Source: an uncultured Alphaproteobacteria bacterium (GTDB lineage: Bacteria; Pseudomonadota; Alphaproteobacteria; Caulobacterales; Hyphomonadaceae). From it: DNA of 64,000 nucleotides. Of the stretch, positions 5,061-64,000 are shown piece after piece. Location of the stretch: contig CAWARK010000001.1 of assembly GCA_963784415.1 (NCBI GenBank), forward strand, positions 10,335-74,334, written 5' to 3'. Position 1 is the stretch's first letter. Each line of letters begins with the position of its first letter. Made by a program: the position numbers and the translations under genes. The notes under the pieces were generated by a model. That model saw only the letters and a program-made list of their open reading frames with translations, made no database searches and was not told where the DNA came from.

Positions 5061-5217
5061 GGCTGGGTTCCCTTGTTTCATGCGAGGAATAGCACGCCTG
5101 CGCATTCGGGCGAGGGCCTATCGGCTGGGCTTGCCCTGCATCGCGATGGAGCATCCGTGACGTCGCATTGGAGCAGGGGGCTTCGTGTCAGTTCGGCGTC
5201 ATGTTAGCGATGCCGCC

Positions 5218-38288: not shown

Positions 38289-39308
38289 TTATCGGGTCCC
38301 AACCACCCTGTCGGGAGTGGAATAACGCCACTCCTGCAGCAGGGTGCGCAGCGCCGCCACAAAGGCTAGCGGCTGGTCCAGCATCACGTGGTGGCGCGCC
38401 TCCGGAATGCCGATGAAGGGCACCTGCCGGTTGAGCAGGTTCTGCATGTACTCCTGCACGTCAGGATCCCACAGGATCGACTTGTCGCCGTTGAACAACG
38501 CGATTCGGCAGCGGGTTTCGCGCAGCAGCTCCCGCTCGGGACGCGAGACGGAGAAGCGCTGCCAGATCGACGGATCGAACTTCCACGCCCAGCCATCGCC
38601 CCCGCCACCCGTGAGAGGCGTCTTCCGCAGGCTCCATCGGGCGATGTAGTCCATGATGAAGTGGTTCTCGCACGGCTGCGGCGGGGCAAGGCGGAAGCGC
38701 GCCAGTGCGGCCTCAAGCGTCGGATAGACCTTGCCACCGCGCACAGGCGGCGGCCCGCGCCTTGGCCGGTCGGGCGGGTTCACCGGCGAATCCACGATCA
38801 CGATGCCGCCGAACCGGTCGCCGTATTCTGCGCCCGTCAGGATCGTCACGAAGCCGCCGAACGAGTGCGCCACGATGATCGGCTTCTCGGCGTGCGCAAA
38901 CAGTCCCGCTGCCTCGCATACCGCGAGCTGCTCACGCGCGAACACGTCCATCACATACGTCTCGCGCCAGTCCGAGTCGCCCATGCCGGAGAACGTCATG
39001 GCGACGACGTGGTAATCCCCGGTGAGGTACGGCGCGACGAAGTCCCACCAGTGCGCGTGCGCGCCGTTGCCATGCACCAGCAACAGGCCCGGCTTCGTGG
39101 CGTCGCCCCAGCTCTGATAGTGGATCTTCGCGCCTTCGCAGTCGACGAACGCAGTCGTGTACGGCGTTGCGATAGCTTCCTCGAACCATTTCGGCGCGGG
39201 CGGTTGCGCGCCCTTGTAGATGGCGAGCGGCCCCTGCTCGGTGGGCATCTCCGCAGGCTGGTCCCTGACCAGCCTGTCGGAGCCCAGCTTGTCCTTGTCG
39301 CTTGCCAT
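38289..39308 (-). CDS. Alpha/beta-fold hydrolase (no signal peptide)
   Basis: HGNGAHAHWW oxyanion region, nucleophile elbow AHSFGG, and C-terminal HHVMLDQP. Confidence 0.8.
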   Translation of the reverse strand: MASDKDKLGSDRLVRDQPAEMPTEQGPLAIYKGAQPPAPKWFEEAIATPYTTAFVDCEGAKIHYQSWGDATKPGLLLVHGNGAHAHWWDFVAPYLTGDYHVVAMTFSGMGDSDWRETYVMDVFAREQLAVCEAAGLFAHAEKPIIVAHSFGGFVTILTGAEYGDRFGGIVIVDSPVNPPDRPRRGPPPVRGGKVYPTLEAALARFRLAPPQPCENHFIMDYIARWSLRKTPLTGGGGDGWAWKFDPSIWQRFSVSRPERELLRETRCRIALFNGDKSILWDPDVQEYMQNLLNRQVPFIGIPEARHHVMLDQPLAFVAALRTLLQEWRYSTPDRVVGTR

Positions 39309-43285: not shown

Positions 43286-43457
43286 GGCGAACCCTCCCGC
43301 TATCCCGCCCGCGACTTCTCGCGCAGGTCGGGTGCTGGGCGGGACCATCCTCCCAAGATGACGTGTGCGTCAATTGGGGCGGTAAGGAGAATTACGCCCG
43401 CCCGCAACCGGGGCGCTTTGCCTTGAAGTAAAGGCGTCTGGCCTGTAGGGGGCGGCC

Positions 43458-46518: not shown

Positions 46519-47779
46519 ATGAGACGCACACACATGGCGGCCCTGCTTGCTGCGCTTGCGGCAATCGCGTGTAGCCCCGACACGCCCGCCGTAACCGCGA
46601 CCGCGCCCGCCGCTGCCGAGGTGGAAACCGATCCCGCGATCGCGCCAGTCGAGCCGCTCAACTACGCCGACGCAGCCAACTGGCTCTGCCGCCCCGAAAC
46701 GCAGGACGCCTGCGAGCAGGTCGCAACTGTCACCAGCATCTCCACCGATGGCGTGCTGTCCAAAGAGAGCGTTCACCCCCGCCGCCAATCCGCCGGTCGA
46801 CTGTTTCTACGTCTACCCCACCATCTCGCGCGACCTCGGCGGCAATGCCGATGCAAAACCCGGCGCGGAGGAAGCCGAGATCATCCGCCAGCAGGCCGTT
46901 CGCTTCGGCGCCGACTGCCGCCTCTTCGTGCCGCTCTACCGGCAAGTGACCTTCACCGCCCTCCGCAAACTCCGCGCCGGAGAAGATGTCGAGACAGATC
47001 GCGAGATGGCCTATGCCGACGTGAAGGCCGCATGGCATCGCTATCTCGCGAACGACAATGCCGGCCGTGGCTTCGTGCTGATCGGTCACGACCAGGGCGC
47101 CGGCATCCTCACGCGCCTCATCGCCAGCGAGATCGACGGACAGCCGATCCAGTCGCAACTTGTGTCCGCACTTCTCATCGGCGGCCCGGTTGAAATACCC
47201 GAAGCCCTCTCCGCCGGCGGGTCCTTCCGCACCATCCCGCTGTGTGCGCCCGGCAAGGGCCCCGGTTGCGTCATCGCTTACTCCGCCTTCCGCGCCGACT
47301 CCCCGCCGCCCGCCGACTCGCTCTTCGGCGCCGCCGCCACCACAGGCATGCGCGCCGCCTGCGTGAACCCGGCTGACCTCTATGATGGCGGCGGCGTGCT
47401 GAAACCCATCATGCCCGCCGGTCCCGTCCTGTTCGACGAACTCGCCCCGCCGACGCCGTGGACCACCGACAACCCCGCAATCGAAACGCCCTTCGTCGCG
47501 CTGCCCGGCCTGCTCACTGCGCGCTGCATCAACAAGGGCGGCTTCAACTATCTCGCCGTCACCATCAACGCCGACCCGCTGGACAAGCGCACGGACGCGA
47601 TCGGCGGCGACGTCGTGGTCAATGGTTCGCTCCGCCCGCTCTGGGGCCTGCACATCGTCGACATGCACCTCGCCATGGGCAACCTCGTCGACATCGTCGC
47701 GCGCCAGTCCGCCGAATGGCGCAAGGCGCAGAAGCCCGGCAGCACACTGCCCGAGGCGTTCCACGGCGACGACCACTAG
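46519..47779 (+). pseudogene. DUF3089-like alpha/beta-fold lipoprotein; frame broken as sequenced (+1 near 46745-46775)
   Basis: Lipoprotein start MRRTHMAALLAALAAIAC is in ORF 46519..47193. The body is ORF 46748..47779 (PPVDCFYVYPT..., LIGHDQGAG). 1261 nt is 3n+1. Confidence 0.75.
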
Positions 47780-50118: not shown

Positions 50119-50526
50119 CTACTTCTTCACCACCTCGACATAATCCGCATGGATCGACGCCTCGAACGGTTTCAGCGTCACCGGCCCGCCCGAAGACGAC
50201 GTGTCCCGCCATGCCTGTTCGTCGAAGCGGATCAGCAACACCTGGATCGGCTCGTCTTTCGTCACCGGGTCCGCGCGCTTCACGCCGCCCAGCACGATGC
50301 CCGTCCGCCCCGCCTCGGCGCGCACCTCGATCGAATGCCCCGTGTCCACCGGCTTGAACGTGCCGGCCGTGGACTTGATCCGCACATGATCGCCCGCCTT
50401 GAACGTCGTGCTGTTATAAACGACCTCTTTCGCATCGACCTTGTAGGCCGAGTGCGGCGTCAGATCGACGCTCGCGCACGCCGTAGCCATCACGGCTACA
50501 AATGCGATTGCACCAAGAACTCTCAT
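50119..50526 (-). CDS. Small lipoprotein, tandem paralogue A
   Basis: MRVLGAIAFVAVMATAC. It shares FKAGD.V.I...AGTFKP.DTGH, AG.TG.VLGGV and FEASIHA.Y..V.K with 50597..51007. Confidence 0.65.
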   Translation of the reverse strand: MRVLGAIAFVAVMATACASVDLTPHSAYKVDAKEVVYNSTTFKAGDHVRIKSTAGTFKPVDTGHSIEVRAEAGRTGIVLGGVKRADPVTKDEPIQVLLIRFDEQAWRDTSSSGGPVTLKPFEASIHADYVEVVKK

Positions 50527-50596
50527 CAACGCCTCCCATACTGAGCGGCCGGCAAGCTGGTCTGCATCGCCCCTCAACACAAGCGGCGCAACGCTG

Positions 50597-51007
50597 CTAT
50601 TGCTTTTTCACGTCCAGATACTCAGCGTGAATGGAAGCCTCGAACGTATCGAGCGTCACCGTGCCGGCGTCGCCCTTCCACGTCTGCGGATCCCAGCGGA
50701 CCAGCGCAACCTGGATGCGCTCGCGAGGATCCACCACCATCCATGGAAGAGGGGGCAGCCGGACCACACCGCCCAGAACCATTCCTGTCTTGCCGGCGTC
50801 CGCTGTCACCTGTTCCGCGTGACCGGTGTCGGTGGGCTTGAACGTGCCGGCCTTGTGCGTGATCACGACCCTGTCGCCGGCCTTGAACACTTCTCCATTC
50901 CAGCTCAGCGTATTCACCGCGACCTTGGAGGACAGCGTCGGCACGGGATCGGCTGTCGCGCACGCAGCCATCGCAGCAGCAAGCCCGATCGCAGCAAGAA
51001 CCCGCAT
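50597..51007 (-). CDS. Small lipoprotein, tandem paralogue B
   Basis: MRVLAAIGLAAAMAAC and the same conserved blocks as 50119..50526. Confidence 0.65.
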   Translation of the reverse strand: MRVLAAIGLAAAMAACATADPVPTLSSKVAVNTLSWNGEVFKAGDRVVITHKAGTFKPTDTGHAEQVTADAGKTGMVLGGVVRLPPLPWMVVDPRERIQVALVRWDPQTWKGDAGTVTLDTFEASIHAEYLDVKKQ

Positions 51008-51104
51008 CACACCCTCGCATCAATTCCCTGCGCTCAGGCTGCGCCGCGCGGTGCGCTATTGCAAGCCGGGTGACAGACGCCGCTGCCCGCCCTAGGCAAG
51101 CATC

Positions 51105-53655
51105 ATGGCCAACGCCTCCCCGAAGCTCGCCGCACGACACCCCTGGCTCCGCATCGCCCTGCGCGAACTCTCGGGCGGCGTGGCGGGCTTCTGGATCTAT
51201 CTCGCCTGTCTCGCGCTCGGCGCGTGGGCCATCGCGTCGGCGGGCTCCATCACCGACTCGCTGCAGGCCGGCCTCAGCCGCCAGTCGCACCAGCTGCTCG
51301 GGGGCGACGCCGCGATCACGCTCTCCCAGCGCGAGGCCAGCAGCGAACAGCGCGCGTGGATGGATCAACGCGGGCAGGTGAGCGCCGCCGCCCAGATCGA
51401 CCTCATGGCCCGCGCCGACAAGGAGGTCATGCAGGTCGATGTGCGCGGCATCGACAACGCCTTTCCCCTGATCGGCAGCTTCACCTTCGACCGCGACATC
51501 GCGCTGCCCGCAGATCCTCGCACGCGACGGCGACTGCCTGGGGCATCGCCGCCAGCGCCAGTCTCGCGAAGGACCTCAACATCACCGTCGGCGACAGCTT
51601 CAGCCTCGGCAGCATCCCCGTCCAGCTCCGCGCCATCCTCACGGCTGAGCCCGACCGCGTCGGCGAGCCCGGCATGTTCGAGCCGCGCGCCATCATCGCC
51701 ATCGACGCCCTGCGCGACGCCGGCCAGATGCAGCCCGGCGCGCTGTTCCGCTCCGCCTACCGCATCCTGCTCAAGCCCGAAGCCGCCGCCAGTTTCGAAG
51801 CCGACTTCAACGCGCGCTGGGAATCCGAAGGCCTGCGCTATCGCGGTCCCGACGACGCCATCGATGGCCTGCGCGCCATGCTCGGCATGCTCAACACCTT
51901 CATGACGGTCGTCGGCATCTCCGCCCTCATCGCCGGCGGCGTTGGCGTCAGTCCCAGGCCACCTCCGCCTTCCTCGACACCCGCCTCGATTCCATCGCCG
52001 CCCTGAAGGCCCTCGGCGCAGACGGCGGCACAATCCGCGCCGCCTACGCGCTGCAGCTCGGCGTCCTCGCCGGCGCAGGCGCACTCGTTGGCATAGTGCT
52101 CGGCGCGCTCTCGCCCTGGATCGTCAGCGCGCTGGCAGGCGACGCCATCCCGCTGCCGATGCAGCTCGGCATCTACCCGCTCGCGCTTCTCAAAGCCTTC
52201 GTGCTGACCTTGCTCGCCGCCGCCATGTTCGCCGCCCCGCCGCTCGGCCGCGCCCGCGCGACATCGCCCGCCGCCCTGTTCCGGCGCGACAGCGGCGACG
52301 CGCCCCAGCCCGTGCCCGCCGCCGAGCGCGCCGTCTCCATCATCGCCGCCATCCTGCTTGTTGCGGTCGCCATGCTCGGTTCGGCCCGGCCCATCATCGT
52401 GCTCGGCCTGATGGTCGGCGCCGCCGTCGCGTACCTGATCCTCATCGGCGCAGCGATGCTTGTCCGCCGTCTCGCCCGCCGCGCCTCGACCCACGTGCGC
52501 GGCCGCCTGCGCCTCGTCCTCGCCAGCCTCGGCGGACCCGGCTCGCTCGCGCCCATCGTCGCGCCCGCCCTTGGCCTCGGCCTCGCGCTCCTGACACTTA
52601 TCACCGTCGTGCAGGAAAACCTGCTCGGCCAGCTGCGCGACACCGCGCCGGACGAAGCCCCCTCCATCATCTTCCGCCAGATCCCCGCCCGCGACGCCGC
52701 CCCGTTCGACGCGATGATGAAGTCGTTCGGCGTCGACACCGCCGACCAGATGGCCTACCGCCGCGCCCCCGTCATCATCGGCCGCGTCACCACCATCAAT
52801 GGCGAGAAGCTCGTCGAACAGAATGTGCCGGCCGAACAGCGCTGGGTCACGCGCACCGAAATGCCGATGACGCTTCTTGCGGAGAAGCCAATCGAGGCCA
52901 ACCTCACCTCGGGCGCCTGGTGGCCGTCCGACTATTCCGGCCCGCCGCTCGTCTCGGTGGAGGAGGGCGCCGCCCACGGTCTCGGCCTTTCCGTCGGCGA
53001 CACCGTCAGCTTCCGCATCTTCACGAAGGAGATCGAGGCGAAGGTCGCCTCCCTCCGCAAGGTCGACTGGTCCGGCTTCGGCGCCAACGTCGCCTTCATC
53101 CTCTCGCCCGGTTCTGTCGGCGCGTTCCAACCGGCGCAGGCCGCCATCGTCATCGTGCCTGCCGACCAGGAAGCCGCCCTCGTCGCGGCCGTAGCGGAAC
53201 GCTGGCCCAACATACTCGCCTTCCAGGTGCGCAAGACGCTCGAGACCGCCGCCGACCTCTTCGGCCAGGTCTCCGTCATCGTCACCGCGCTTGCGAGCGT
53301 TGTCCTCGCGGCCGGCATCCTCGTCCTCTTCGGCGCCTTTGCGGCAGCCGCCCGCCGCCGCCGCCGCGAGTCGGCCCTGTTGAAAGTCTTCGGCGCCACG
53401 CGCGTTGCGATTCTCTCGCTCTACGCTCTTGAGTTCGCACTTGCGGCATTCCTCGCCGTCGTGCTCGGAAGCAGTCTGGGTATTGCCTCGGCTCACCCGA
53501 TTGTGATTCTAGTCTTCGACGCGACCTGGCGCTTTGCATGGTCGCCTGTCGTCACGGTTGCTTTCACCACCGTGTTATCCGCAGCGGCGGGCGGCGCCGT
53601 TGTCGGTTGGTCGACTTTGTCCCACCGCCCGGCCCACGTATTGCGCTCGTCTTGA
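51105..53655 (+). pseudogene. FtsX-family ABC permease (YbbP-like, about 850 aa); two frame breaks as sequenced (about 51505-51545 and about 51947-51953)
   Basis: Three collinear pieces sit in three frames: ORF 51105..51905 (N-terminal TM), ORF 51224..52006 (WGIAASASLAKDLNITVGDSF...NTFMTVVGISALIAGGVGV) and ORF 52096..53655 (second FtsX half). Between pieces 2 and 3 the text reads QATSAFLDTRLDSIAALKALGADGGTI. 2551 nt is 3n+1. Confidence 0.8.
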
Positions 53656-53788: not shown

Positions 53789-54739
53789 ATGATTAAGCTC
53801 GTATCTATGGTTGCATTGGCTGTTGGCCTTGGCGCCTGCACGACGATGCCGGCGGACCATGCGTCCGTGGCGTCCTCGACCGCGACGGCGCCTGCCTGGA
53901 AAGCCAAACGTGGGCCCGACGGCGTCCACCCTGATCTCAACGGCGTGTGGAAAGTGATGAACACCGCCAACTACAACATTGAAGCTCACCCGGCTCAGTC
54001 GGCGTTGCAGCTGCGTCCTGGCCCGTACGTTCCGGTGCCCGATGCGCAGGTTGTGGCCCTCGGCGCGATTGGCGCTGTGCCCGCTGGCGTTGGAATCGTC
54101 GAAGGCGACGGCAAGATCCCTTACACGGCTGATGCGCTCGCGGCCCGCGACGCCAACCGCGCCAAGGCGATCGAGATGGACCCGGAAGTGAAGTGCTACC
54201 TGCCGGGCGTTCCGCGCGCCAACTACATGGACAAGCCGTTCCAGATCTTCCAGTCCGACAAGGCCGTGTTCTTCGCCTACGAATACGCCGGCGCCGTCCG
54301 CAACATCTTCCTCACCCCGCAACCGCCGGCTCCCGCCCAGTCCTGGATGGGTCAGTCCTACGGCACGTGGGATGGCGACACGTTCGTTGTCGAAGTCACC
54401 GACCAGTACGGCACCACCTGGCTCGACCGTTCGGGCAACATGAAGGGTGAGAACACCAAGATCGTCGAGCGTTGGACGCCGACCTCTGATTCCACGCTGC
54501 GCTACGAAGCCGAAATCACGGATCCGAGCGTCTACACCAAGCCGTGGAAAATCGGCTTCAACCTGTACAAGGCCTCGGGCGAAGACGCCCAGCTGCAGCA
54601 GTTCAAGTGCGTGGAGTTCGTCGAAGAGCTCCTGTACGGCCACCTGCGCAAGAACCCGCTGCCGGGTCCGGCGCTGGATCGTGCGAAGCGTGAAGCTGAA
54701 GAGCGCGCAGCCGAAGAGGCCGAACTCGACGCACAATAA
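53789..54739 (+). CDS. Exported lipoprotein, divergent member (paralogue 3) of the recurrent family
   Basis: Lipobox MIKLVSMVALAVGLGAC. It has PDLNGVWK, KCYLPGVPR, WMGQSYGTWDGDTFVVEV, IVERWTP and LRYEAEITDPSVYTKPW. GGGGAGGAG lies upstream of ATG 53789. Confidence 0.75.
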   Translation: MIKLVSMVALAVGLGACTTMPADHASVASSTATAPAWKAKRGPDGVHPDLNGVWKVMNTANYNIEAHPAQSALQLRPGPYVPVPDAQVVALGAIGAVPAGVGIVEGDGKIPYTADALAARDANRAKAIEMDPEVKCYLPGVPRANYMDKPFQIFQSDKAVFFAYEYAGAVRNIFLTPQPPAPAQSWMGQSYGTWDGDTFVVEVTDQYGTTWLDRSGNMKGENTKIVERWTPTSDSTLRYEAEITDPSVYTKPWKIGFNLYKASGEDAQLQQFKCVEFVEELLYGHLRKNPLPGPALDRAKREAEERAAEEAELDAQ

Positions 54740-55078
54740 TGTGTACGGCTGCTCCGGAATGGTTCCCCTTTTTGTGACCGGGGAATGTGACGGAAGCAGC
54801 CGCCACTCGCGTTGAATAAAGCGTGATGGCGGTGGGCTCGGCCAAAAGCCAATTGAGGTTCGCCGCCAAAATGCTGCTGGAATCCGGGTTGTCCGTCGCC
54901 TCTGTGGCGAGCGGACGCAGGCCCGGGGAACACAGCCCGATATGAGCTAACCCCTTGAGACTCTGCAGCGTCGGAGATAAAACGGGTTCAAATTCAGGGG
55001 CGTTGGCGGGGCATACTCCCTCACCAATTCAGTCCCAAGCAACACGACGGCGAAGGCCGCCTGTACTGGAGGAAGTCG

Positions 55079-55630
55079 ATGAAAAATAAAGTTCGTCTGG
55101 CTGTCGCGGCTGCCACCCTGGCTGTCCTGACGGCTGCCGGCGCAGGCACCGCCGCCTATGCCCACCACGCGTTCGCCGCCGAGTTCGACGCGAACCGTCC
55201 GGTCCTGCTCAAGGGCTCGGTCGAGTTCGTCGAATGGACGAACCCGCACACCTGGATCCATATCTCCGTCAAAGACGTCAACAAGTTCGGCCAGCCGAAA
55301 AAAGGCTCGAACCTGAACTGGGCGATCGAAGGCGGCACGCCGAACACGATCTTCCGCGGCGACCTGTCGACCACGGATGCCAAGTCCAAGGCGATCCCGA
55401 AAGGCACCGAAGTCGTCGTTCGCGGCTACCAGTCGAAAGACACGGTCTGCTCGCGCAAATGGGGCACAGGCGCCAAGCTCGACAAGATCACCTGCAAGGC
55501 CAACGGCCGTGACGTGACCTTCCCGAACGGTTGCAAACTGTTCGTCGGCGGTTCGTCCACGGGCGCTCCGAAAGACGGCGCCGAAGCTGGCGCCAAAACG
55601 GATTGCACCGCCACCTCGGCCCCGACCTAA
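55079..55630 (+). CDS. Secreted DUF6152-like protein
   Basis: Signal ...GAGTAAYA followed immediately by HHAFAAEFDANRPVLLKGSVEFVEWTNPHTWIHI. This pattern is as I recall it for DUF6152; the assignment is from memory. Confidence 0.7.
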   Translation: MKNKVRLAVAAATLAVLTAAGAGTAAYAHHAFAAEFDANRPVLLKGSVEFVEWTNPHTWIHISVKDVNKFGQPKKGSNLNWAIEGGTPNTIFRGDLSTTDAKSKAIPKGTEVVVRGYQSKDTVCSRKWGTGAKLDKITCKANGRDVTFPNGCKLFVGGSSTGAPKDGAEAGAKTDCTATSAPT

Positions 55631-55653
55631 CAGTCAGGCCCGACACACCATCA

Positions 55654-55689
55654 AGCCCGCCGGCCCCAAGCCGGCGGGCTTTTTGTTTG
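55654..55689 (+). terminator. Rho-independent terminator
   Basis: AGCCCGCCGG-ccccaag-CCGGCGGGCT followed by TTTTGTTTG. Confidence 0.75.
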
Positions 55690-55712
55690 CGCGTTTGAGC
55701 GCCCACACCGCC

Positions 55713-55954
55713 GTCACTCCGGACGCGCGCAGCGCGAGCCGGAACCCAGGAGCCCCGCGCACGGTCCTGGAAACGGACCTCAGGTCCGTGTTCCCCGCGA
55801 AGGCGGGGATCCCGTCTTTGCGCGCAGCGCAAACCTCTTCGGCAACGCCTCCACTTGTCATCCCGGAAGCCGCACAGCGCTATCCGGGACCCATTTCTCT
55901 ACCCCGACACCTGACGAATGGGTCCCGGCTCGCGCTCCGCTCGGCCGGGATGAC
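55713..55954. repeat. Cluster of REP hairpins (GTCA(C/T)(T/C)CCGGA...TCCGGGA type)
   Basis: GTCACTCCGGACGCGCGCAGCGCGAGCCGGAACCC lies at about 55713-55750 and CCCCGCGAAGGCGGGG at about 55793-55808. GTCATCCCGGAAGCCGCACAGCGCTATCCGGGACCC (55857-55892) has an inverted partner GGGTCCCGGCTCGCGCTCCGCTCGGCCGGGATGAC (55920-55954). Confidence 0.6.
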
Positions 55955-56125
55955 AACCGCGCTATGGGCGACAAGAGTTACACCCCATTTTGTTGGATGA
56001 GATCCGCACTTATCCAGCAGCCCGCGTTTCCGCGTCTCCAGCAATCTCAATGACTTGCGCGAAAAATAGGGTGGATTGGCGTTCGGCAAATCGGCCGGGC
56101 TCCGGGCGCACGTATAGTGGCGGCC

Positions 56126-56620
56126 ATGAAACGCAAAGGCTGGCCCATCTGGCTGCTGCGTGACATCCCGGCCTTCCTGGGTGTCATGCTCAGCTTCTGG
56201 CCGCTGGTGATCCTCCTGATCTCCAGCGAACGCCGAGTCATGCGCGGAAAGACGCTTCGCAGGTCCGTGTTCGAGACCATCGCCCTCCTGCTCGCCCACG
56301 CCGAAGCGCGCCTCACCTTCGCGCTCACGCGCCAGGCCTACCGCCGGCTCGGCTGGAACCCCCGCCTCGTGCGCTTCAATCTCATCCCCGCCACCTACAA
56401 CCTGCGCGAAGTGCAGGAGCGCTACGCGAATTACGTGAACGCGTTCGGCGACATGAACGCCGTCGTCGAGACGTACATCGAAGACATCCGCCAGCGGTAT
56501 CGCATCGCGGAACGCGACCTCGTCGCCCATGGTTCGACGGACGCGCGGCAGAGCCGCGCTGCTCACCATGAGCTGGTGGGCGCCTCATCGTGCGCCACAT
56601 CCCCCTTGCGCTCATCCTGA
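56126..56620 (+). CDS. Hypothetical membrane-anchored protein; its 3' end runs into REP units
   Basis: GC3-rich ORF (MKRKGWPIWLLRDIPAFLGVMLSFWPLVILLI...). The last 30 or so codons coincide with REP sequence (56528-56572 and 56611-56655), so the true stop is uncertain. Confidence 0.45.
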   Translation: MKRKGWPIWLLRDIPAFLGVMLSFWPLVILLISSERRVMRGKTLRRSVFETIALLLAHAEARLTFALTRQAYRRLGWNPRLVRFNLIPATYNLREVQERYANYVNAFGDMNAVVETYIEDIRQRYRIAERDLVAHGSTDARQSRAAHHELVGASSCATSPLRSS

Positions 56621-56759
56621 GCAGCGCCCGCAGGGCGCGTCCGTCGAAGGACGAGCGCGGCCACGCGCACGCACGTGGGCCTCCGCTGCATCCAAATTTC
56701 GGAAAACCAAACCCCAACCCACCTCGCACGCCCCGCGCGCGAGGCCGCACCCGCATGCA

Positions 56760-56796
56760 CAAACAAAAACCCCGGAGCGCTTTCACGCTCCGGGGT
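56760..56796 (-). terminator. Rho-independent terminator after the 56822 gene
   Basis: Minus strand reads CCCCGGAGCG-tgaaag-CGCTCCGGGG followed by TTTTTGTTT. Confidence 0.75.
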
Positions 56797-56821
56797 CATC
56801 TTGTCCGCGATTTCCGTCAGA

Positions 56822-57972
56822 TCAGCTGAAGCCGATCCAGCGTCCGCCGGCTGCCGTGGCGACCCAGCTGAGGATCGACATCACCGCGATCATCTTCGCG
56901 ATGCGGCCGCCTGCCGTGGCGTCGTCCTTGTAGATCTCGTAGCCGGTGAGGCCGATCAGCACGAGGCCACCCAGAACGCTGCGCGCGATGCCGAGGTTCT
57001 TCAGCTCCCCCGAGAAGCTGTCGAGACCAGCCACCACATAGCCTTCCAGCACCGTGCCGAACATCACGATGAAGCCGATGCCGGCGATGATCCGCGTCCG
57101 CTTGCCGAACAGCAGCAGCACGGCATAACCCGCCGTCAGCACGTGGAATGTGCCGGGGCTGATGCCTTCGGCGGTCGAGAACACGCCCATGGCAAAGAAG
57201 AAGATCAGCATGGCGATCGCGCCGATGATCATCGCCACGAGGTCGACTTTTCCGTCCGCCTTGGAGATGCGGTTGACGACGCCGAACGTGAAGATCAGCG
57301 CCGCCAGCATCGAGACCATCTTCACGAAGAAGGACTGCGATGTGTACAGCCGCTCCGCGTTGAGGCCGCCGATCACAAGCCCGGTGCCGATGACGATCGA
57401 CGGAAGCCGATGCCCGCGATGACCCGCGTCCGCTTGCCGAACAGCAGCAGCACGGCATAACCCGCCGTCAGCACGTGGAATGTGCCGGGGCTGATGCCTT
57501 CGGCGGTCGAGAACACGCCCATGGCAAAGAAGAAGATCAGCATGGCGATCGCGCCGATGATCATCGCCACGAGATCAACTTTTCCATCCGCCTTGGAGAT
57601 GCGGTTGACCACGCCGAACGTGAAGATCAGCGCCGCCAGCATCGAGACCATCTTCACGAAGAAGGACTGCGATGTGTACAGCCGCTCCGCGTTGAGGCCG
57701 CCGATCACAAGGCCGGTGCCGATTACGATGCAGGCGCCGACGATGTGCCAGACGCGCAGGTTGCGCTCGACTTCCGACGGCGTTTCATCCGTCAGGCCCG
57801 CGCCGAGAAGGCGAAGGCAGGTCAGGATCACGCAGCCGCCGAGCAGGGCGAGGCCGAGCAGGTGGATGGCGCCGAACGGGGCGTAGAGGTCGCCGAGATA
57901 AACGTAGGGCGGGACCTTGCCGAGATTGTGGACCCAGTCAGCTGCGCCCGGAAAGAATTTTGCGAAATCCAT
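56822..57972 (-). pseudogene. Multi-pass membrane protein split into two ORFs by an internal 332-bp tandem duplication
   Basis: ORF 57373..57972 (199 aa) and ORF 56822..57376 (184 aa) share a module of about 105 aa that is identical except for one residue (IGGLNAERLY...FGKRTR(V/I)IAGIGF). Removing one repeat copy gives a single protein of about 270 aa. The N-terminus has FGAIHLLGLALLGGCVILTCLRLLG. Confidence 0.7.
57071..57734. repeat. Direct tandem duplication, 2 x 332 bp, about 97-98% identical
   Basis: Three anchors give a constant offset of 332: GAAGCCGATG at 57071 and 57403, CATGGCAAAG at 57188 and 57520, GATCACAAG at 57371 and 57703. I found about 8 mismatches by hand alignment. Confidence 0.9.
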
Positions 57973-57975
57973 GGA

Positions 57976-58833
57976 TCAGCCTCCCTGGCCAGGTGTCGGT
58001 TGCGCAGGCGCCGGTTGAGCAGGCGGCGTTGCCGGGAATACCGCATTGGGATCCGGCGGACTTTCATCTGTGGGCGCGGTGTCCGTCTCGTCGGCCGGAG
58101 CTTCATCCGCAGGCGGCGCATCCATGCTCATCTTGCCGCCATTGGCGAGCGGATCGACGTCGTCGTTCAGCATCTCCTCGTCCTCGAGCGATTCTTCGTT
58201 CTCGCCGTCGGTGTAGAGGTTCGCGCATTCGGCGAAGGCATAGAGGATCGAGCTGGGTTGCAGCTTGTCGCACTTGTACCAGTCATACGCGATGAAGCGA
58301 CCGAAGATGATCACGAGGATCCAGCACGCCATCGAGATCGCGCCGGAGAGGCGGACCTTCATCGGCGGCGTCGGCATCGCGTCCCACTCCGCCTGGCTCG
58401 TCTGAACCTTGAAGTGGAACCAGAAGATGTTGATCGACGCGATGACCAGGAAGATCATCTTCAGGCGGAACCAGACGTCGTGATAATAGAACGTCGCCGG
58501 CTGGCGTCCGAAGAACGTGACGAGACCCGTGAACACCATCATGCCGAACGCCATCATGGTGATGGGCAGCACTTTGTCGTTCAGGCGCGAGAACGGCACG
58601 TTGCGGAACGCAAAGCCCATCATGCGCAGGTCGATGATCCAGATCGTCCCCGCGAAGAACATCAACGTCAGCACGTGCGTGCCTTCGAAGAGGTTCCAGA
58701 GGTTCTGGGAATTGTTCAGCGCCTGCGACCAGGACAGCGCGCCTTCCTCGGTCCCTTTGCCAAGGTCGTATTGCAGCCATGAAAAGAAATCGTGGAACAA
58801 TCTCGTCTCTCCCCTGGGGGTCCCGCATTTCAC
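57976..58833 (-). CDS. Multi-pass membrane protein of unknown function with an acidic Pro-rich C-terminal tail
   Basis: EGTHVLTLMFFAGTIWIIDLRMMGF resembles the HLLGLALLGG...LRLLG motif of the downstream gene. The start may be TTG 58800, which follows AGGGGAGAG. The stop lies 3 nt before the downstream ATG. Confidence 0.75.
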   Translation of the reverse strand: MKCGTPRGETRLFHDFFSWLQYDLGKGTEEGALSWSQALNNSQNLWNLFEGTHVLTLMFFAGTIWIIDLRMMGFAFRNVPFSRLNDKVLPITMMAFGMMVFTGLVTFFGRQPATFYYHDVWFRLKMIFLVIASINIFWFHFKVQTSQAEWDAMPTPPMKVRLSGAISMACWILVIIFGRFIAYDWYKCDKLQPSSILYAFAECANLYTDGENEESLEDEEMLNDDVDPLANGGKMSMDAPPADEAPADETDTAPTDESPPDPNAVFPATPPAQPAPAQPTPGQGG

Positions 58834-58899
58834 GGTGACCCCGATAGCAGTCCGTCAGCCTTGAGGGCCTTCAGCGCTGCTCGTCAAGCTTCCCACAAT

Positions 58900-59518
58900 C
58901 TATTGATTGGGCAGCGGTGGCTCAGCGCGGTTGGGCAGCGGCTTCAGCGGGTCTGCTGCAGCCGGCGGTCCGTCCGCATTGGCGATATATTTCACATGGC
59001 AGCCATGGCAGGCACGATACATGTCCGTACCGGCATCAAAGAAGCCGTTTTTGTCCTTCTTTTCTGCCATGTCGCCGGCCTTCATGCCCGCTTCATTGAG
59101 CTGGTGCGCAAAGTCCACCCACGCGCGGTCGTCGTCGAGCGGACGTCCCGGCAGCAGCAGCAGGTTCGAGGCTTCGGCGACTGTGCGCGCCGCGTTCTCG
59201 GCAGCGATCCAGCCATCATCGTCGGTCGGGAAAAGTTCCTGCACCGTGTCGCCGATGATCCAGCCCTGACGGTGCCAGACCTCGAAGGCGTTGTAGTCCA
59301 TCACGTGGCCCATCAACTCTTTCAGGTCGAGCGATGTGCGGAAGTCGGCCAGTCGTCGCGCCGCCCATGCCTTCGCCGGGCGTCGAGCCTGCGGGCGCTT
59401 TCGACACGACTTCGTCGTCGGACCCGCCGCCGCCACAGGCTGCGAGACCAAGACTTCCAATGCTCAAAGCTAAAGCCAGCGCGAGAACACGCGCCGAGGA
59501 CGAACGGATCATTGCCAC
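58900..59518 (-). pseudogene. Lipoprotein cytochrome c with C-terminal CxxCH (class II / cytochrome c'-like); frame broken as sequenced (+1 near 59340-59375)
   Basis: Lipoprotein start MAMIRSSSARVLALALALSIGSLGLAAC is in ORF 59216..59518. The helical body ...LKELMGHVMDYNAFEVWH...GTDMYRACHGCHVKYI is in ORF 58900..59460. 619 nt is 3n+1. Confidence 0.7.
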
Positions 59519-59781
59519 TCCCCTAGGGCGCTGGCGGCGCGAACGGCGTATTCGCCTGTCCCTGCCATCTGCGCAAAAGAAATTCCTCCGAGGCGCAAGT
59601 TATCCCGCCGCAACGGCAAGCGCCATGGCCTATGTGTCGCATACTTGATTGGATTCTGCACCTCTCGCGGACACACGCCAGTGAACGCGGGGCTGCTTCC
59701 ACAAATGTTGCAATACCTGTACGACGCCAACCATGAGGCCCGCGGCAAAGCGTGGTCCGCGCGGGCAGGGAGACCCCACAA

Positions 59782-61041
59782 ATGAGAGTCATGAGAAGCG
59801 GAATTCTTGCCGCAGGTGCAGCATTTTTTCTGGCGACTGCGTGCCAGTCGACACCGACCACCGTTGATCCGTCGACGTCCTCGCTCGTCATGGGCGACGC
59901 GCAGGCGCTCGGTTTCGATCCTGCCAAGCTCGCAGTGATCACCACGGCCGTCGATGCCGACGTCGCTTCCGGCAAGCTTCCCGGCGCCTACCTGCTGGTT
60001 GGCCGCAAGGGCCAGGTCGCCTACCAGCACGGCTTCGGCGTCCAGGGCCCCGGCCAGACGACGCCGACGTCGAATGAAACCATCTTCCGCGTCTTCTCGA
60101 TGACCAAGCCGATCGTCGCCGTCACCGCGATGACGCTGGTGCAGGAAGGCAAGCTCGACCTCGACGCCCCGGTGTCGAAATACCTGCCGGCCTTCGCGAA
60201 CATCAAGGTCTGGCAAAAGGACGGCGACCCGGTCGCCTCCACCAAGCCGATGCTGATCCGTCACCTGATGAGCCACACGTCGGGCATCATCTACTCCTTC
60301 ATCCAGCCGACGCAGCCGATCTCGAAGGCCTGGGTTGCCGGCGGCGAAGGCCGCACGGACCTCTCGGCCAAGGACTGGTCGGAGCAGGTTGTCGCCAAGC
60401 TGCCGATGATCGCCGAACCGGGCACCGCCTGGAACTACAGCCAGGGCCTCGATGTCCTCGGCGGCGTGATCGAGAAGATCACCGGCAAGTCGCTGGAAGA
60501 AGCCATCCGCGAGCGCGTCACCGGCCCGCTCGGCATGACCGACACCGGCTTCGTGCAGCCCAAGGAAAAGTCCGGCCGCTTCGCCCAGTCGCAGAAGACG
60601 GACGCGCTGTACTACGATTACGCCGCGCCGAAGACGTTCTTCTCGGGCGGCGGCGGCATCTCGTCGACGGCGGAAGACTATCTCCGCTTCGTTCTGATGC
60701 TGGCCAACCACGGCACCTACAAAGGCGTTCAGATCCTGAAACCGGAAACTGAAGCGCTGATGATGATCGACCAGACCAACCCGGACATCCGCAAGAACGG
60801 CCTGTTCTTCCCGGGCCCGGGCATGGGCTTCGGCCTCGGCATGTCGCTGGTGATCGATGACACCAAGACCAAGACGACGGGCAACGGCACCTTCTCGTGG
60901 AACGGCATTGCCGGCACCGAGTGGTGGTACGATCCGAAGAACGACCTCTTCATGGTCTGGATGATCCAGGACCGCGCCCTTCTCGGCGAATACCAGAAGA
61001 AAAACCGCGCCTGGATCTACGACGCGCTCGTGAAGCCGTAG
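59782..61041 (+). CDS. Serine hydrolase of the beta-lactamase/class C esterase family, lipoprotein
   Basis: Signal MRVMRSGILAAGAAFFLATAC. S-x-x-K motif FSMTKP, Y-x-N-like WNYSQG, and a C-terminal WNGIAGTEWW. Confidence 0.85.
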   Translation: MRVMRSGILAAGAAFFLATACQSTPTTVDPSTSSLVMGDAQALGFDPAKLAVITTAVDADVASGKLPGAYLLVGRKGQVAYQHGFGVQGPGQTTPTSNETIFRVFSMTKPIVAVTAMTLVQEGKLDLDAPVSKYLPAFANIKVWQKDGDPVASTKPMLIRHLMSHTSGIIYSFIQPTQPISKAWVAGGEGRTDLSAKDWSEQVVAKLPMIAEPGTAWNYSQGLDVLGGVIEKITGKSLEEAIRERVTGPLGMTDTGFVQPKEKSGRFAQSQKTDALYYDYAAPKTFFSGGGGISSTAEDYLRFVLMLANHGTYKGVQILKPETEALMMIDQTNPDIRKNGLFFPGPGMGFGLGMSLVIDDTKTKTTGNGTFSWNGIAGTEWWYDPKNDLFMVWMIQDRALLGEYQKKNRAWIYDALVKP

Positions 61042-61065
61042 GTTGATCTGGACTTCAAATGGAAA

Positions 61066-61099
61066 GGGCGGCTCTCAAAAAGAGCCGCCCTTTTTGTTT
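61066..61099 (+). terminator. Rho-independent terminator
   Basis: GGGCGGCTCT-caaaa-AGAGCCGCCC followed by TTTTTGTTT. Confidence 0.8.
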
Positions 61100-61127
61100 C
61101 AGCTCGCTGCCAGTGTAGACGGGGCGG

Positions 61128-61877
61128 ATGGATAGCTATCTGGCGATTGTCATCGGCGGCGCAGTGCTCGCCGGGTTCGTGCAGGGCCTGTCGGGCTTTG
61201 CATTCTCGCTCGCGGCGTTGTCCGTGTGGGCGTGGGCGGTCGATCCGCAACTCGCGGCGCCGATGGCCGTGTTCGGCTCGCTGATCGGGCAGCTGGTCGC
61301 GCTGCCGCTGACATGGCGCGGGACGGATTTCAAACGACTCATGCCGTTCGTGATCGGCGGCCTTCTCGGCGTGCCGCTGGGCGTCTTTCTGCTCGGCATT
61401 CTCGATCCGACCGGGTTCAAGCTGGGCCTCGGCATGTTCCTGCTGATCTATTGCCCGGCGATGTTCTTCGCGCCCGCGACGCTCGCGGTTAGGTGGGGCG
61501 GCAAATGGGCTGATGCGATTTCCGGCTGGATCGGCGGCGTGTTCGGCGGCATCGGCGGACTTGCGGGCGGCATCCCAACGCTCTGGTGCACGCTGCGCGG
61601 CTGGGACAAGGACACGCAGCGCGGTGTGATGCAGGGCTTCAACATCACGATGCACGTTGCAACGCTGACCGGCTATCTGATTGCGGGCGACAAGATCAAC
61701 GGCGAGACACTGAAGATGTTCGCGATCATCACGCCGGCGCTTGCCATCCCCGTTCTGATCGGCGCGATGGCGTTCAAGCGTCTCAACCAGAAAGCGTTCC
61801 GGCGCGTCGTGCTGGGCCTGCTGTTTGTGTCCGGCATCGTGCTGACGGCGTCGAGTGCGGGCGCGGTGTTTCACTAG
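61128..61877 (+). CDS. TauE/SafE-family (sulfite exporter-like) membrane protein
   Basis: 249 aa with 7-8 TMs and a GxxxGxxQGLSGFAF-type N-terminus (GGAVLAGFVQGLSGFAF). Confidence 0.8.
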   Translation: MDSYLAIVIGGAVLAGFVQGLSGFAFSLAALSVWAWAVDPQLAAPMAVFGSLIGQLVALPLTWRGTDFKRLMPFVIGGLLGVPLGVFLLGILDPTGFKLGLGMFLLIYCPAMFFAPATLAVRWGGKWADAISGWIGGVFGGIGGLAGGIPTLWCTLRGWDKDTQRGVMQGFNITMHVATLTGYLIAGDKINGETLKMFAIITPALAIPVLIGAMAFKRLNQKAFRRVVLGLLFVSGIVLTASSAGAVFH

Positions 61878-61894
61878 CCGCGCCCGCACGGACC

Positions 61895-62913
61895 TTACTT
61901 CGTTGTCTTCGCCGCATGCAGGTCAGCCACGCGCTGTCCCATCAGGATGTTGGGCAGCGAGTAGTTGGCCTCGTGGCACGACGAGGGATACATGCCGGTG
62001 TCCGTTGCGTAGAACGAGAACTCCGCCAGCCATGGTGCGGCGTAGGCCTTCGGATCTTCGATGGTGAACTGGTAGAGCAGTTCGTCGGCAGACAGTCGCG
62101 TGTAGCGTTCGATCACCTTCGAGTCGGGGTTGACGACAAACTTGCTCATCAGTCCGCGCACGTGATCCAGCGGATTGTTGCGGATCGTCTCGATCACCAG
62201 CGTGTCGCCCTCCCAGCGCGCGATGCTGTCGCCATACCAGGATGTCGGCCCCGGCGGCTTGTGCGCGCTCGCGAATGGGATGATGCGGGCCTCATCGCCG
62301 TTCTCGTTGTGGACGACGATATAGCCGGGCGTCTGGATGAACTGCAGGCGGTTGTACGAGACGACCGCGTGGATCGGCGGATTGCCGCTGAGCACGAGGC
62401 AGCGCTCGCCGCTTGGTCGCTGTTCGTAATCGTCCTTCTTGTCCTCGGCTTTGTCTTCCGCCTCGATCGCGGCCTTGGCTTCCGCCGTCAGCGGCAGCGC
62501 GCCGTCAGCCGGCAGGACGACCAGCCGCGTGCGCCGCTCGCCTCGCACGATGGGCAGAGCCGTCGGTGTCGCCCATGATGTGCGCCGCTTCCGGATCGAT
62601 GCTCTTTTCCAGAAACGGACCCATGCCGGCAAACATGGTGTCGACGATTTTCCTGGCTTCGGCTTCCGGCACGACCAGGTTCGGCGTCATCGGATTGGCG
62701 CCAAACACCGGAAAGAAATTCGTGGCCCAGACGGCGCCCTGAAAGTCAGGATGACCGTCCGGCGTTCGCGGCACGCTTCCTTCCGGGACGAGCGAGGTGG
62801 GCGTGTAGACTTGCGCTGCCGCCGGCGTTTGCGCCGGATCGGTCTGGGCGAAGGCGAGCGGGGAGGCAGAGCAGGGCGGTGGTGAGGAGGCAGGGGAGGC
62901 GGAGGTTTTTCAT
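61895..62913 (-). pseudogene. Secreted protein, recurrent family, paralogue 4; two frame breaks as sequenced (GGGG run 62860-62863 and about 62556-62561)
   Basis: The signal MKNLRLPCLLTTALLCLP is in ORF 62746..62946. ...LAFAQTDP...PDGHPDFQGAVW...IMGDTDG is in the frame of ORF 62505..62774. LPIVRGERRT...ERC...FIQTPGY, ARIIPF, WYGDSIARWEGDTLVIET, VIERYTR, FTIEDPKAYAAPW and SSCHEANYSL are in ORF 61895..62632. 1019 nt is 3n+2. Confidence 0.75.
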
Positions 62914-63033
62914 TTTTTGTTCCTCTTCTGGTTGTTCAACGTTCATCGCGCGTTGGCGTTGAATGCGTCATGAATGTATTGACAGCCGCGAGGGCCATGA
63001 CGTGATCGCAGACATCAAAATCATGACCGCTGG

Positions 63034-64000
63034 TTGCAAAGCATCGGAGCAGACGTGCCGGAGCTGACAGTTGGGGCAGGACTGCCACGCGGACTTGTCC
63101 GCCTCGCCATCTCGAAGGGCGCCTCCGCAGACGCGCTGTGGGCGCAGTCGGGCATCGATCCGGCGGAGCTCGACGATCAGGACAACCGCGTGCCGATGCC
63201 GAAATACATCGCACTGATGCGGGCGGCGAAAGAGCTGACCGGCGACCCCGCGCTGGCGCTGCACTATGGCGAGGCGGTTGATCTCGGTGAGCTGTCGATT
63301 GCCGGGCTGATCATGAATGCGTCCGAGACGATGGGCGATGCCTTCCTGCAGATGAATCGCTTCGGCCGCCTCGCCATCGAAGTGGAAGGTGTCGGCGCCG
63401 GCGCTGATCGCTTCAAGGGCACGGTCAAGGATGGCGCCTACTGGGTGGTCGATGGACGCGCCAACCCGAACGACTTTCCCGAACTCACCGAAGTGACATT
63501 CGCGCGCATGGCGTGCCAGCCGCGCCGCTTCCTGGCCAAGCCACATGTGCTTGAGGCGCATGTCACGCATGCAGCGCCGGAATACGCGCGCTGAGTATGA
63601 GCGGGTGCTCGGCTGTCCAGTCGTGTTCGACAGTCACTGGAACGCGATGCGCATGGATCCGATGCTCTCCAGCTATCGCGTCGCGCTGCAGCCTCGCTAT
63701 GTCTTCGGCGTCCTGAGCGAAAAGGCCGAGGCGCTGCTGCACGAGCTGGAGCAGTCGAAGTCGACACGCGCGGCAGGGTCGAGATGCATGCTGATGCCGG
63801 TGCTGCACACGGGCGATATCAGCATGGACTCCATCGCCGAGAAGATGGCCGTCAGCCGCCAGACATTGTTCCGACGCCTCAAGGCCGAGGACGCGACATT
63901 CGAGAAAGTGCTCGACGAGCTGCGCCATCGTCTGGCGCTGCACTATCTCGGCGGGCGCAAGGCATCCGTGAACGAGACGGCCTACCTCGTCGGCTTTTCC
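63034..64000 (+). pseudogene. AraC-family transcriptional regulator, 3' end runs off window; frame broken as sequenced (+1 near 63585-63592)
   Basis: ORF 63034..63594 is an AraC-type ligand-binding region. The adjacent frame stays open to the window end and reads AEYERVLGCPVVFDSHWNAMRMD...ISMDSIAEKMAVSRQTLFRRLKAEDATFEKVLDELRHRLALHYL...ETAYLVGFS (HTH_18). The start codon is uncertain. Confidence 0.8.

Follow-up and report, generated by a model that had tools for sequence, protein, structure and literature searches.

Five uncharacterised protein families encoded between positions 53,789 and 64,000 of a 64,000-nucleotide stretch of DNA (hereafter the window) from an uncultured Hyphomonadaceae bacterium (assembly GCA_963784415.1, contig CAWARK010000001.1) very probably form a conserved envelope module in two parts, the remaining genes of the stretch being neighbours. 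The families are a cytochrome c-like lipoprotein, two membrane proteins of family DUF6644 (DUF6644a and DUF6644b), a secreted DUF6152 protein and a family found in several copies, called here the recurrent family. Their co-occurrence is far beyond chance and extends across phyla, and their combination is undescribed; a literature search on the names DUF6644 and DUF6152 returned no papers. Judged from sequence, a periplasmic redox role of the core is plausible. A sequence-only reading had earlier proposed the whole 53.8-64 kb region as one accessory system for periplasmic oxidation or detoxification under AraC control. The genes that it listed are all present where and in the order it placed them, as seen by open reading frame (ORF) listing and Pfam/NCBIfam scans, with the export signals or lipoboxes that it described. 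Its “recurrent” family is real, with four copies in the window by tblastn, and the minus-strand operon running from the cytochrome through DUF6644a to DUF6644b was borne out and closes with a strong terminator. Genes of the five families in this region, with two terminators, are as follows.

53789-54739, plus strand: recurrent-family lipoprotein of type A, 316 aa, lipobox GLGAC; core module member, in every case beside DUF6152
55079-55630, plus strand: DUF6152 secreted protein (PF19649), 183 aa; core module member
55653-55681, plus strand: intrinsic terminator after DUF6152, a 12-bp stem followed by a T run
56797-56768, minus strand: terminator closing the cytochrome-DUF6644a-DUF6644b operon, 13-bp stem, strong
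56822-57972, minus strand: DUF6644b (PF20349), about 7-8 transmembrane (TM) helices, 272 aa after removal of one repeat copy; core module member
57976-58833, minus strand: DUF6644a (PF20349), 4 TM helices; core module member
58900-59518, minus strand: class-II-type cytochrome c lipoprotein, lipobox LAAC, haem motif CHGCH; core module member, frame broken
61895-62913, minus strand: recurrent-family protein of type B, read in three frames, with two 1-bp insertions

Five families recur together across phyla

To assess the linkage, two anchors were used. DUF6644a homologs were traced to their contigs, and an alignment scan with one genome per species gave 80 loci, which were searched by tblastn and with hidden Markov models built from those loci. 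A metagenome scan with an Acidobacteriota-type DUF6152 also gave 80 loci. Results showed that DUF6644b directly adjoins DUF6644a in every one of the 80 species-level loci where the contig continues. Among the 48 DUF6644a-anchored loci flanked by at least 8 kb of sequence each way, a cytochrome c-like gene was found within 10 kb in 32, DUF6152 in 33, the recurrent family in 35 and all of them in 29. From the DUF6152 side, two recurrent-family genes and DUF6152 form a fixed recurA-recurB-DUF6152 trio in all 18 metagenome loci with at least 1.5 kb on both sides, and DUF6152 always adjoins one to four recurrent-family genes per locus. The recurrence that the sequence-only reading proposed to look for therefore exists for these five families, across phyla.

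The module was found in Hyphomonadaceae/Caulobacterales, in Sphingomonadales (on chromosomes and a plasmid), in an OM182 gammaproteobacterium and in Acidobacteriota, and the five families occur in five arrangements. The Hyphomonadaceae-type order, kept down to 42% DUF6644a identity, reads TonB receptor, membrane fusion protein and RND pump, a variable slot, serine hydrolase, cytochrome c-DUF6644a-DUF6644b, a second variable slot, DUF6152, recurrent-A and FtsX/ABC; the pump and the receptor therefore lie just past the end of this window. On Sphingomonadales chromosomes, DUF6644a-b is followed by an SMP-30-like gene, a TonB receptor, DUF6152 and two recurrent-family genes, with the cytochrome a few kb away. 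The OM182 locus (L086) carries DUF6644a-b on one strand and cytochrome c-DUF6152-recurB-recurA on the other, and a Vicinamibacterales metagenome-assembled genome (MAG; L087) holds all families inside 4.4 kb. The fifth arrangement, found on a Novosphingobium humi plasmid by a separate search that started from DUF6152, has cytochrome c-DUF6644-DUF6644 divergent from a hypothetical 431-aa gene, a recurrent-family gene and DUF6152. An all-against-all comparison of representative distant loci revealed no further shared family.

Some features of single loci are of note. The N. humi plasmid locus (L089, NZ_CP117419.1, 7792-12285) is a minimal module, with a cytochrome of 144 aa, two 4-TM DUF6644 proteins of 154 and 165 aa, a recurrent-family protein of 302 aa and a DUF6152 protein of 127 aa; the 431-aa protein is unannotated, and a TetR regulator also lies alongside. 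In two loci, both gammaproteobacterial, a HupE_UreJ_2 gene and a gene for an unannotated membrane-anchored periplasmic protein stand between the cytochrome gene and the DUF6644 pair (L086, 8638-9956; L088, 8528-9957).

Frame breaks and a duplication in the window

Several of these genes are broken in the assembled sequence, a point absent from the sequence-only reading: the cytochrome, the second recurrent-family gene and the AraC gene contain frame breaks, and DUF6644b contains a tandem duplication. In the cytochrome gene, the lipobox and the CHGCH haem motif fall in different frames. Alignment with the closest relative (L009) placed 1-bp insertions near 59353 in the cytochrome, near 62866 and 62558 in the second recurrent-family gene and near 63587 in AraC; all four mapped frame breaks in the window are thus single-base insertions relative to L009. 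DUF6644b is interrupted by a 332-bp tandem duplication (57071-57734), a length not divisible by three, and all its orthologs encode uninterrupted proteins of 271-282 aa. Between the two copies, the first eight differences (positions 12-321) comprise seven synonymous third-position changes and one Val/Ile exchange, and three further differences are bunched at the repeat junction. This pattern suggests that two functional strain alleles were joined by the assembler, rather than drift after a disabling duplication.

The assembly is indel-rich. We treated the frame breaks and the duplication as assembly error and not as gene decay because an FtsX permease, another paralog and the essential rpsD are split too. 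Besides the positions mapped above, the frameshift-split stretches of the window are 22558-23176, 51105-53655 and 21143-22242. A pseudogene reading of the frameshifts was rejected on the same grounds, the ABC permease and rpsD being split and the duplicate copies differing at synonymous sites.

That shared descent or chance alone keeps the core genes together, or that the copy in this genome is a set of pseudogenes in decay, is hardly credible. Hyphomonadaceae MAGs of shared ancestry do make up much of the sampled diversity, five genes are disrupted in the window, and chance proximity is not negligible for the recurrent family, which is multi-copy (four in 64 kb). However, all five families turn up again in other gene orders, in different taxonomic orders and phyla and on a plasmid. 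Although the window has a single copy of DUF6152, 33 of 48 loci have this family no more than 10 kb from DUF6644a. The disruption of rpsD and the almost exclusively synonymous differences between the duplicate copies likewise point to assembly error.

The cytochrome and the DUF6644 pair

The cytochrome carries a lipobox, an invariant Met in its first helix and an invariant C-terminal CxxCH across 13 diverse homologs. In the window protein this motif is CHGCH, 32 residues before the end, and its C, C and H are conserved in 45 of 46 homologs. A single CxxCH near the C-terminus is a feature of class II cytochromes c, and a profile search of the PDB weakly matched, along the last helix, about 35 cytochromes c' as well as c-556 and b562 (best E 1.6e-3); a single-sequence PDB search gave only noise.

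Both membrane proteins belong to DUF6644 (PF20349, gathering threshold 27 bits). DUF6644a scored 28.1 bits, the N- and C-terminal parts of DUF6644b scored 58.4 and 34.7 bits, and all 18 members of the DUF6644a alignment match the family. DUF6644a homologs begin about 11 aa later than the annotated start, and its reading frame overlaps the DUF6644b start by a few bases. An exact-sequence database lookup of the window's DUF6644a found no record, and a profile PDB search with it gave only noise. DUF6644a has four TM helices, a positive TM1-TM2 loop and a very acidic C-tail, with H53, H118, H140, C188 and C203 invariant; by the positive-inside rule, its N-terminus, H53, H118 and the C188/C203 tail are predicted to face the periplasm. 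In DUF6644b, H37 is the one invariant His, at the spot equivalent to that of DUF6644a, and GGRWIGF is invariant too.

Below threshold, the 18 DUF6644a proteins matched DUF2214 (17/18), HemJ (5/18) and CopD (2/18). Neither HemJ/UPF0093 (PF03653; best E 0.012, far under threshold) nor CopD (PF05425; best E 0.002) could be assigned. One DUF6644a subgroup (P0108, P0061, P0077, P0089, P0086, P0118 and P0120) has an insert of about 50 residues between TM3 and TM4 that resembles two extra TM helices, which would keep the topology.

DUF6152 and the recurrent family

The DUF6152 assignment is clear (PF19649, 80.3 bits, E 1.1e-22, threshold 27 bits). A motif A-x-A|HH, in which the bar marks the cleavage site predicted from sequence, is invariant in sets of 30 and 12 diverse sequences, and its A|HH and the N-P-H-x-W motif are both invariant from Alphaproteobacteria to Acidobacteriota. 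An AlphaFold2 (AF2) model of DUF6152 (pLDDT 67.8) matched oligonucleotide-binding (OB) folds (SSB, PriB and N-domains of aminoacyl-tRNA synthetases) with E values of about 3e-3 or worse, and a single-sequence PDB search gave only noise. A histidine-brace beta-sandwich, as in CopC, YcnI or lytic polysaccharide monooxygenases, was considered for DUF6152 and dropped, the model matching OB folds instead.

Copies of the recurrent family lie at 5185-6198, 21143-22242, 53789-54739 and 61895-62913 in the window, and the type B protein (61895-62913) is 42% identical to the paralog at 5185-6198. The family counts at least 7,921 homologs and, in a separate clustering at 50% identity, at least 6,892 clusters. 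Pfam, NCBIfam and the PDB, the last searched by single sequence and by profile, gave no match, and a Pfam scan of 32 diverse members revealed no shared family. Its AF2 model (pLDDT 57.6) shows a helix followed by eight strands at 151-261 that form a barrel, with faint fatty acid-binding protein/lipocalin matches (best Foldseek E 0.013; TM scores 0.23 by query and 0.49 by target). On this model, the recurrent family bears a faint resemblance to lipocalins.

The intact paralog at 5185-6198 (plus strand) is divergent from a DUF4399 lipoprotein gene (4533-5105, minus strand) and is unlinked to DUF6152 and DUF6644; the recurrent family therefore occurs alone too. One representative of the family has a pyrroloquinoline quinone (PQQ) domain match itself.

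PQQ dehydrogenases and TonB receptors in the module environment

Analysis of the gene environment could give clues regarding the function of the module, and its neighbours in distant loci were therefore clustered. Of 16 informative metagenome loci, 8 (L101, L107, L124, L129, L137, L147, L151 and L156) have PQQ dehydrogenase genes next to the recurA-recurB-DUF6152 trio, and in L129 and L101 they abut the trio on the same strand. TonB-type receptors also recur, one cluster in 11 Sphingomonadales loci and a second in 7 further loci, with L077 and L079 in both; in Sphingomonadales, such receptors lie directly upstream of DUF6152. A sulfite-oxidase-type molybdenum (Mo) oxidoreductase was found near the module in six Sphingomonadales loci and in L088. 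A PepSY_TM gene (FoxB/HiuB-type) accompanies it in three loci (L118, 6596-7975; L130, 754-2520; L077), standing in L118 between the cytochrome c-like gene and recurA; Pfam scans found no PepSY_TM membrane protein in the window region.

Quinoprotein alcohol and methanol dehydrogenases use dedicated c-type cytochromes. In the main rival explanation, the cytochrome and the DUF6644 proteins would simply accept electrons, as a respiratory chain, from PQQ and Mo dehydrogenases of the periplasm, and DUF6152 and the lipocalin-like proteins would be accessory factors of the dehydrogenases, for delivery of cofactor, PQQ or substrate, rather than redox partners of the cytochrome. We consider this rather unlikely. 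The trio-linked PQQ genes and the Mo oxidoreductases just described speak for it, as does L081, where a cytochrome c-like gene (17780-18325, minus strand) lies just downstream of recurrent-family genes in a locus that holds a member of the Mo oxidoreductase cluster. The window itself also encodes two paralogous PQQ/cytochrome lipoproteins in tandem (39.4-43.3 kb).

39374-41317, minus strand: lipoprotein with N-terminal cytochrome c and PQQ-type beta-propeller (Pfam PQQ, PQQ_2, Cytochrome_CBB3)
41348-43348, minus strand: lipoprotein of the same composition, in tandem with the first

However, in the available sequence of five of the eight PQQ-linked loci neither DUF6644 nor cytochrome c is seen, a quinoprotein gene is missing from the 10 kb around the cytochrome operon in most Hyphomonadaceae loci, and such a chain would leave the strongly conserved His-His tip of DUF6152 without an obvious role. 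As a side observation, an alpha/beta hydrolase gene (38289-39308) adjoins the lipoprotein pair.

A putative periplasmic redox relay

We tentatively propose, with limited confidence, that the module acts as a periplasm-facing redox relay made of the DUF6644 pair, the haem c lipoprotein, a His-ligated metal site on DUF6152 and lipocalin-like carriers. The analysis shows the genes, their conservation and linkage, the invariant residues and the topology described above, whereas the cofactors, partners, direction of electron flow and substrate of the relay are what we infer. Further points in its favour are the weak but recurring DUF2214 and HemJ matches, the PQQ, PepSY_TM and HupE_UreJ_2 genes near the module, and the precedents of FoxB, HiuB and CrpH (10.1101/2021.01.28.428567, PMC12424826, PMC13038864) and PuuD (PMC4562309), haem membrane proteins with periplasmic substrates. 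The first part would be the cytochrome c-DUF6644a-DUF6644b operon, with a periplasmic cytochrome of the four-helix class-II type carrying a Met/His-ligated haem c. DUF6644a and DUF6644b, apparently an obligate pair with an invariant His each at the periplasmic end of the first TM helix, may form a heterodimer holding haem b or a metal between those histidines. The second part would be the DUF6152 unit, whose secreted OB-fold protein is predicted to start its mature chain with His-His; the third invariant His, in NPHxW, likely completes the metal site. The quinone pool and the periplasm could exchange electrons by way of the DUF6644 pair and the haem c lipoprotein, which would give them to the DUF6152 metal centre or receive them from it, while the lipocalin-like proteins may carry a small ligand or a metal complex. 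The module would thus serve periplasmic oxidative metabolism, its frequent neighbours being PQQ and molybdenum dehydrogenases and TonB-dependent receptors.

Several observations weigh against this relay or against the unity of its two parts. The match of the cytochrome profile to the PDB is weak and spans the C-terminal helix alone, and the cytochrome matches no Pfam model at E ≤0.01. Both AF2 models are of low confidence (57.6 and 67.8), with weak fold matches (E 3e-3 or worse). A comparison of the DUF6644a alignment with E. coli CopD (YebZ) by hhalign gave 0.3% probability, with a single-sequence template and hence low sensitivity. A metal-efflux reading of the linked RND pump was rejected, the pump being of the HAE1 multidrug type, and no Fur-box-like site (≤7 mismatches) was found in the intergenic regions of the window. 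As for linkage, DUF6644 was found near DUF6152 in just 6 of the 18 DUF6152-anchored loci (2 of 6 with 8-kb flanks), about one third of DUF6152 loci having both DUF6644 and the cytochrome, and Phenylobacterium and a second Hyphomonadaceae paralog pair have DUF6644a-b amid unrelated genes, without the other families. Linkage is therefore asymmetric, and the two parts can work apart, being often but not always joined.

A secreted protein with a predicted N-terminal His-His beside a polytopic membrane protein recalls copper systems. In CopC/CopD (E. coli YobA/YebZ) and YcnI/YcnJ, a periplasmic metal binder with a mature N-terminal His is paired with a polytopic protein of 4-TM units. The module differs by its dedicated cytochrome c and lipocalin-like proteins and by the modelled OB fold of DUF6152. 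We regard it as distinctly unlikely that the module is a metal-acquisition system of this kind, most likely for copper, in which a DUF6152 His brace would capture the ion, the cytochrome reduce it and the DUF6644 pair move it into the inner membrane or across it. Besides the predicted N-terminal His-His, the third His and the weak CopD matches, this idea could draw on the HupE/UreJ-type metal permease gene within the operon of two gammaproteobacterial loci, on the TonB receptors upstream of DUF6152 in Sphingomonadales and on the precedent of CrpH, a haem membrane protein in copper supply (PMC13038864). It runs against the hhalign result, the OB fold modelled in place of the CopC beta-sandwich and the failure to find a metal-responsive regulator or operator, and it leaves one to four lipocalin-like proteins without explanation.

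The PepSY_TM proteins FoxB, HiuB/HiuC and CrpH are inner-membrane, His-ligated haem proteins, whose substrate is brought into the periplasm by a TonB-dependent receptor encoded adjacently (10.1101/2021.01.28.428567, PMC12424826, PMC13038864). The module resembles them in lying near TonB receptors and in having an invariant His on the periplasmic side of the membrane. However, there is no sequence relationship: DUF6644 is another 4-TM family, and the module has in addition a haem c lipoprotein encoded separately, a His-His protein modelled as an OB fold and the lipocalin-like proteins. Where PepSY_TM genes occur with the module, in the three loci given above, they accompany it and do not replace it.

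That the module instead releases iron from ferric siderophores in the periplasm, by TonB import, esterase cleavage, reduction by the haem protein and transfer of iron to DUF6152, strikes us as very improbable. The TonB receptor neighbourhood, the PepSY_TM gene between the cytochrome c-like gene and recurA in L118 (with L130 and L077) and a PF00756 esterase in L121 would fit. Yet PepSY_TM occurs in just those three loci, the Fur-box search of the window's intergenic regions was negative, and the module has no linked gene for an iron importer of the inner membrane. None of the receptors reaches the cut-off of a siderophore-receptor model, or of any other NCBIfam model.

Other known systems are comparable to the proposed relay in part. 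PuuD, a membrane cytochrome c urate oxidase, is a DUF989 domain fused to a cytochrome c (PMC4562309). As could hold for the module, a membrane domain with a 4-TM core and a periplasmic c-type cytochrome draw electrons from a substrate (PMC4562309), but PuuD has a fused class-I cytochrome and DUF989 where the module has a separate class-II-type lipoprotein and a DUF6644 pair, and no purine-catabolism genes lie near the module. A kinship of PuuD with CopD was not confirmed, PMC4562309 giving DUF989 only a faint similarity to DUF2269, and PuuD is kept as an analogy. The protoporphyrinogen oxidase HemJ/PgdH2 (UPF0093) is a small 4-TM membrane dimer binding haem b (PMC13564367). The weak UPF0093 matches of 5 of 18 DUF6644a proteins are the point of likeness; however, they are far under Pfam thresholds, and DUF6644 consists of two distinct paralogs never found here in a haem-biosynthesis context. 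With class II cytochromes c (c', c-556), the module cytochrome shares the near-C-terminal CxxCH, and the first-helix Met, with a weak profile match to cytochromes c', but it is lipid-anchored, about 40-60 residues longer and without a match to a Pfam class-II model. Proximity to PQQ dehydrogenase genes also recalls the cytochromes of quinoprotein dehydrogenases, although their known partner cytochromes (cytochrome cL, c550) are class-I. By analogy, the module thus appears comparable in logic to PepSY_TM reductases, PuuD and HemJ, and it is a member of none of these families.

In a broader version of the relay, possible but rather doubtful, the five families would be an undescribed, widespread periplasmic metallo-redox system tied to PQQ quinoproteins, through cofactor or metal supply or as a new oxidase, spanning Alphaproteobacteria, Gammaproteobacteria and Acidobacteriota with thousands of family members. 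If so, three things would come with it: a new type of OB-fold metalloprotein with His-His at its N-terminus; a 4-TM heterodimer, likewise new, that binds haem or a metal and has a lipoprotein cytochrome of its own; and a large lipocalin-like family that lacks annotation. No member of any of the five linked families has been studied, and the shared linkage places each in a testable context of haem or metal binding and electron transfer, with ties to PQQ dehydrogenases and TonB receptors. Culturable carriers for genetics include Novosphingobium, Sphingobium and Erythrobacter strains, among them Novosphingobium jiangmenense 1Y9A, Sphingobium cupriresistens, Erythrobacter sp. NE805 and, for the plasmid copy, N. 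humi KACC 19094, and the plasmid-borne version is minimal. Should the redox or metal role hold, these proteins would add a new toolkit to the respiration and periplasmic metal handling of bacteria that abound in soil and fresh water; should it fail, a clean delimitation of the system remains. The module is one of many conserved clusters lacking an assigned function, and it is real, widespread and testable.

Neighbouring genes differ between lineages

The other features between 53,789 and 64,000 are listed below.

55700-55960, no strand: cluster of repetitive extragenic palindromic (REP)-like repeats (inverted repeats I1 and I10), outside the module
56126-56620, plus strand: lineage-specific ORF with one N-terminal TM helix, third-position G+C fraction 0.85, outside the conserved module
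59782-61041, plus strand: beta-lactamase-family serine hydrolase lipoprotein (PF00144), lineage neighbour
About 61070-61105: terminator-like hairpin after the serine hydrolase, read from the sequence
61128-61877, plus strand: TauE/SafE-family membrane protein (PF01925), variable neighbour
63034-64000, plus strand: AraC-family regulator cut by the window end, frames read, 1-bp insertion, variable neighbour

The gene order around the five families does not recur as they do. The serine hydrolase, the RND pump and the TonB receptor are confined to the Hyphomonadaceae-type lineage, AraC and TauE are variable, and ORF 56126 is limited to the closest relatives (L009-L012 and L019, tblastn matches of 31-52%) and has no Pfam match. 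We compared the slot between pump and hydrolase in the 33 Hyphomonadaceae-type loci that have a pump, a hydrolase and a cytochrome: AraC occupies it in 17 loci and TauE in 9; four loci, like the window, have both, and 11 have neither. The hydrolase is found in 41 of 47 loci with the cytochrome and DUF6644a, the six without it including L086-L088, L029, L063 and L079.

Family assignments of these neighbours were obtained from Pfam and NCBIfam. The hydrolase exceeds the PF00144 threshold (223 bits) and carries S-M-T-K, an S-x-x-K motif; it reaches no NCBIfam equivalog cut-off, the nearest being AcmB (174 against a cut-off of 550). The TauE/SafE protein scored 109.5 bits with PF01925 (threshold 32.6). 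The AraC ortholog of L002 contains PF12625 and HTH_18, and the nearest NCBIfam models of AraC are QhpR, GliR and CypR, all under cut-off; the protein resembles these catabolic regulators.

The reading of the whole 53.8-64 kb stretch as one AraC-regulated system supposes that a hydrophobic or ester substrate is taken up, hydrolysed, oxidised and exported by a TonB receptor, an esterase, lipocalin-like binders, the cytochrome chain, an RND pump and TauE. This is quite improbable. In its favour, the Hyphomonadaceae-type gene order is deeply kept, the pump is of HAE1 type, the regulator resembles QhpR, GliR and CypR, and Novosphingobium, L087 and L121 have esterase genes of other families close to the module. 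The slot counts are nevertheless hard to reconcile with a single 10-kb system. Control by AraC finds no support either: the regulator is missing from about half of the comparable loci and, like the hydrolase and the pump, from the Sphingomonadales, gammaproteobacterial and Acidobacteriota versions. The transcription units of DUF6152, of the cytochrome operon and of the hydrolase are each set off by terminators from the genes around them. As for the esterases, they are so common that a neighbour within 10 kb is often expected, and their recurrence near the module was judged indistinguishable from chance. AraC, TauE, the hydrolase and the pump are neighbours of the two-part module and should not be annotated as part of it.

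DUF3089 (lipase-like) genes were also seen a few kb from the module in unrelated lineages (46748-47779 in the window; 10126-11628 in L114; L126; L161; L006/L007).

Other features of the window

The REP cluster named in the sequence-only reading was borne out, with REP-like inverted repeats and a 24-mer present in two copies against 0 expected. A sigma-70 promoter scan returned 0 sites. Two small paralogous lipoprotein genes lie in tandem on the minus strand at 50119-50580 and 50597-51010; the first, the one of the pair that was scanned, has no Pfam match, and both stand beside ABC transporter genes.

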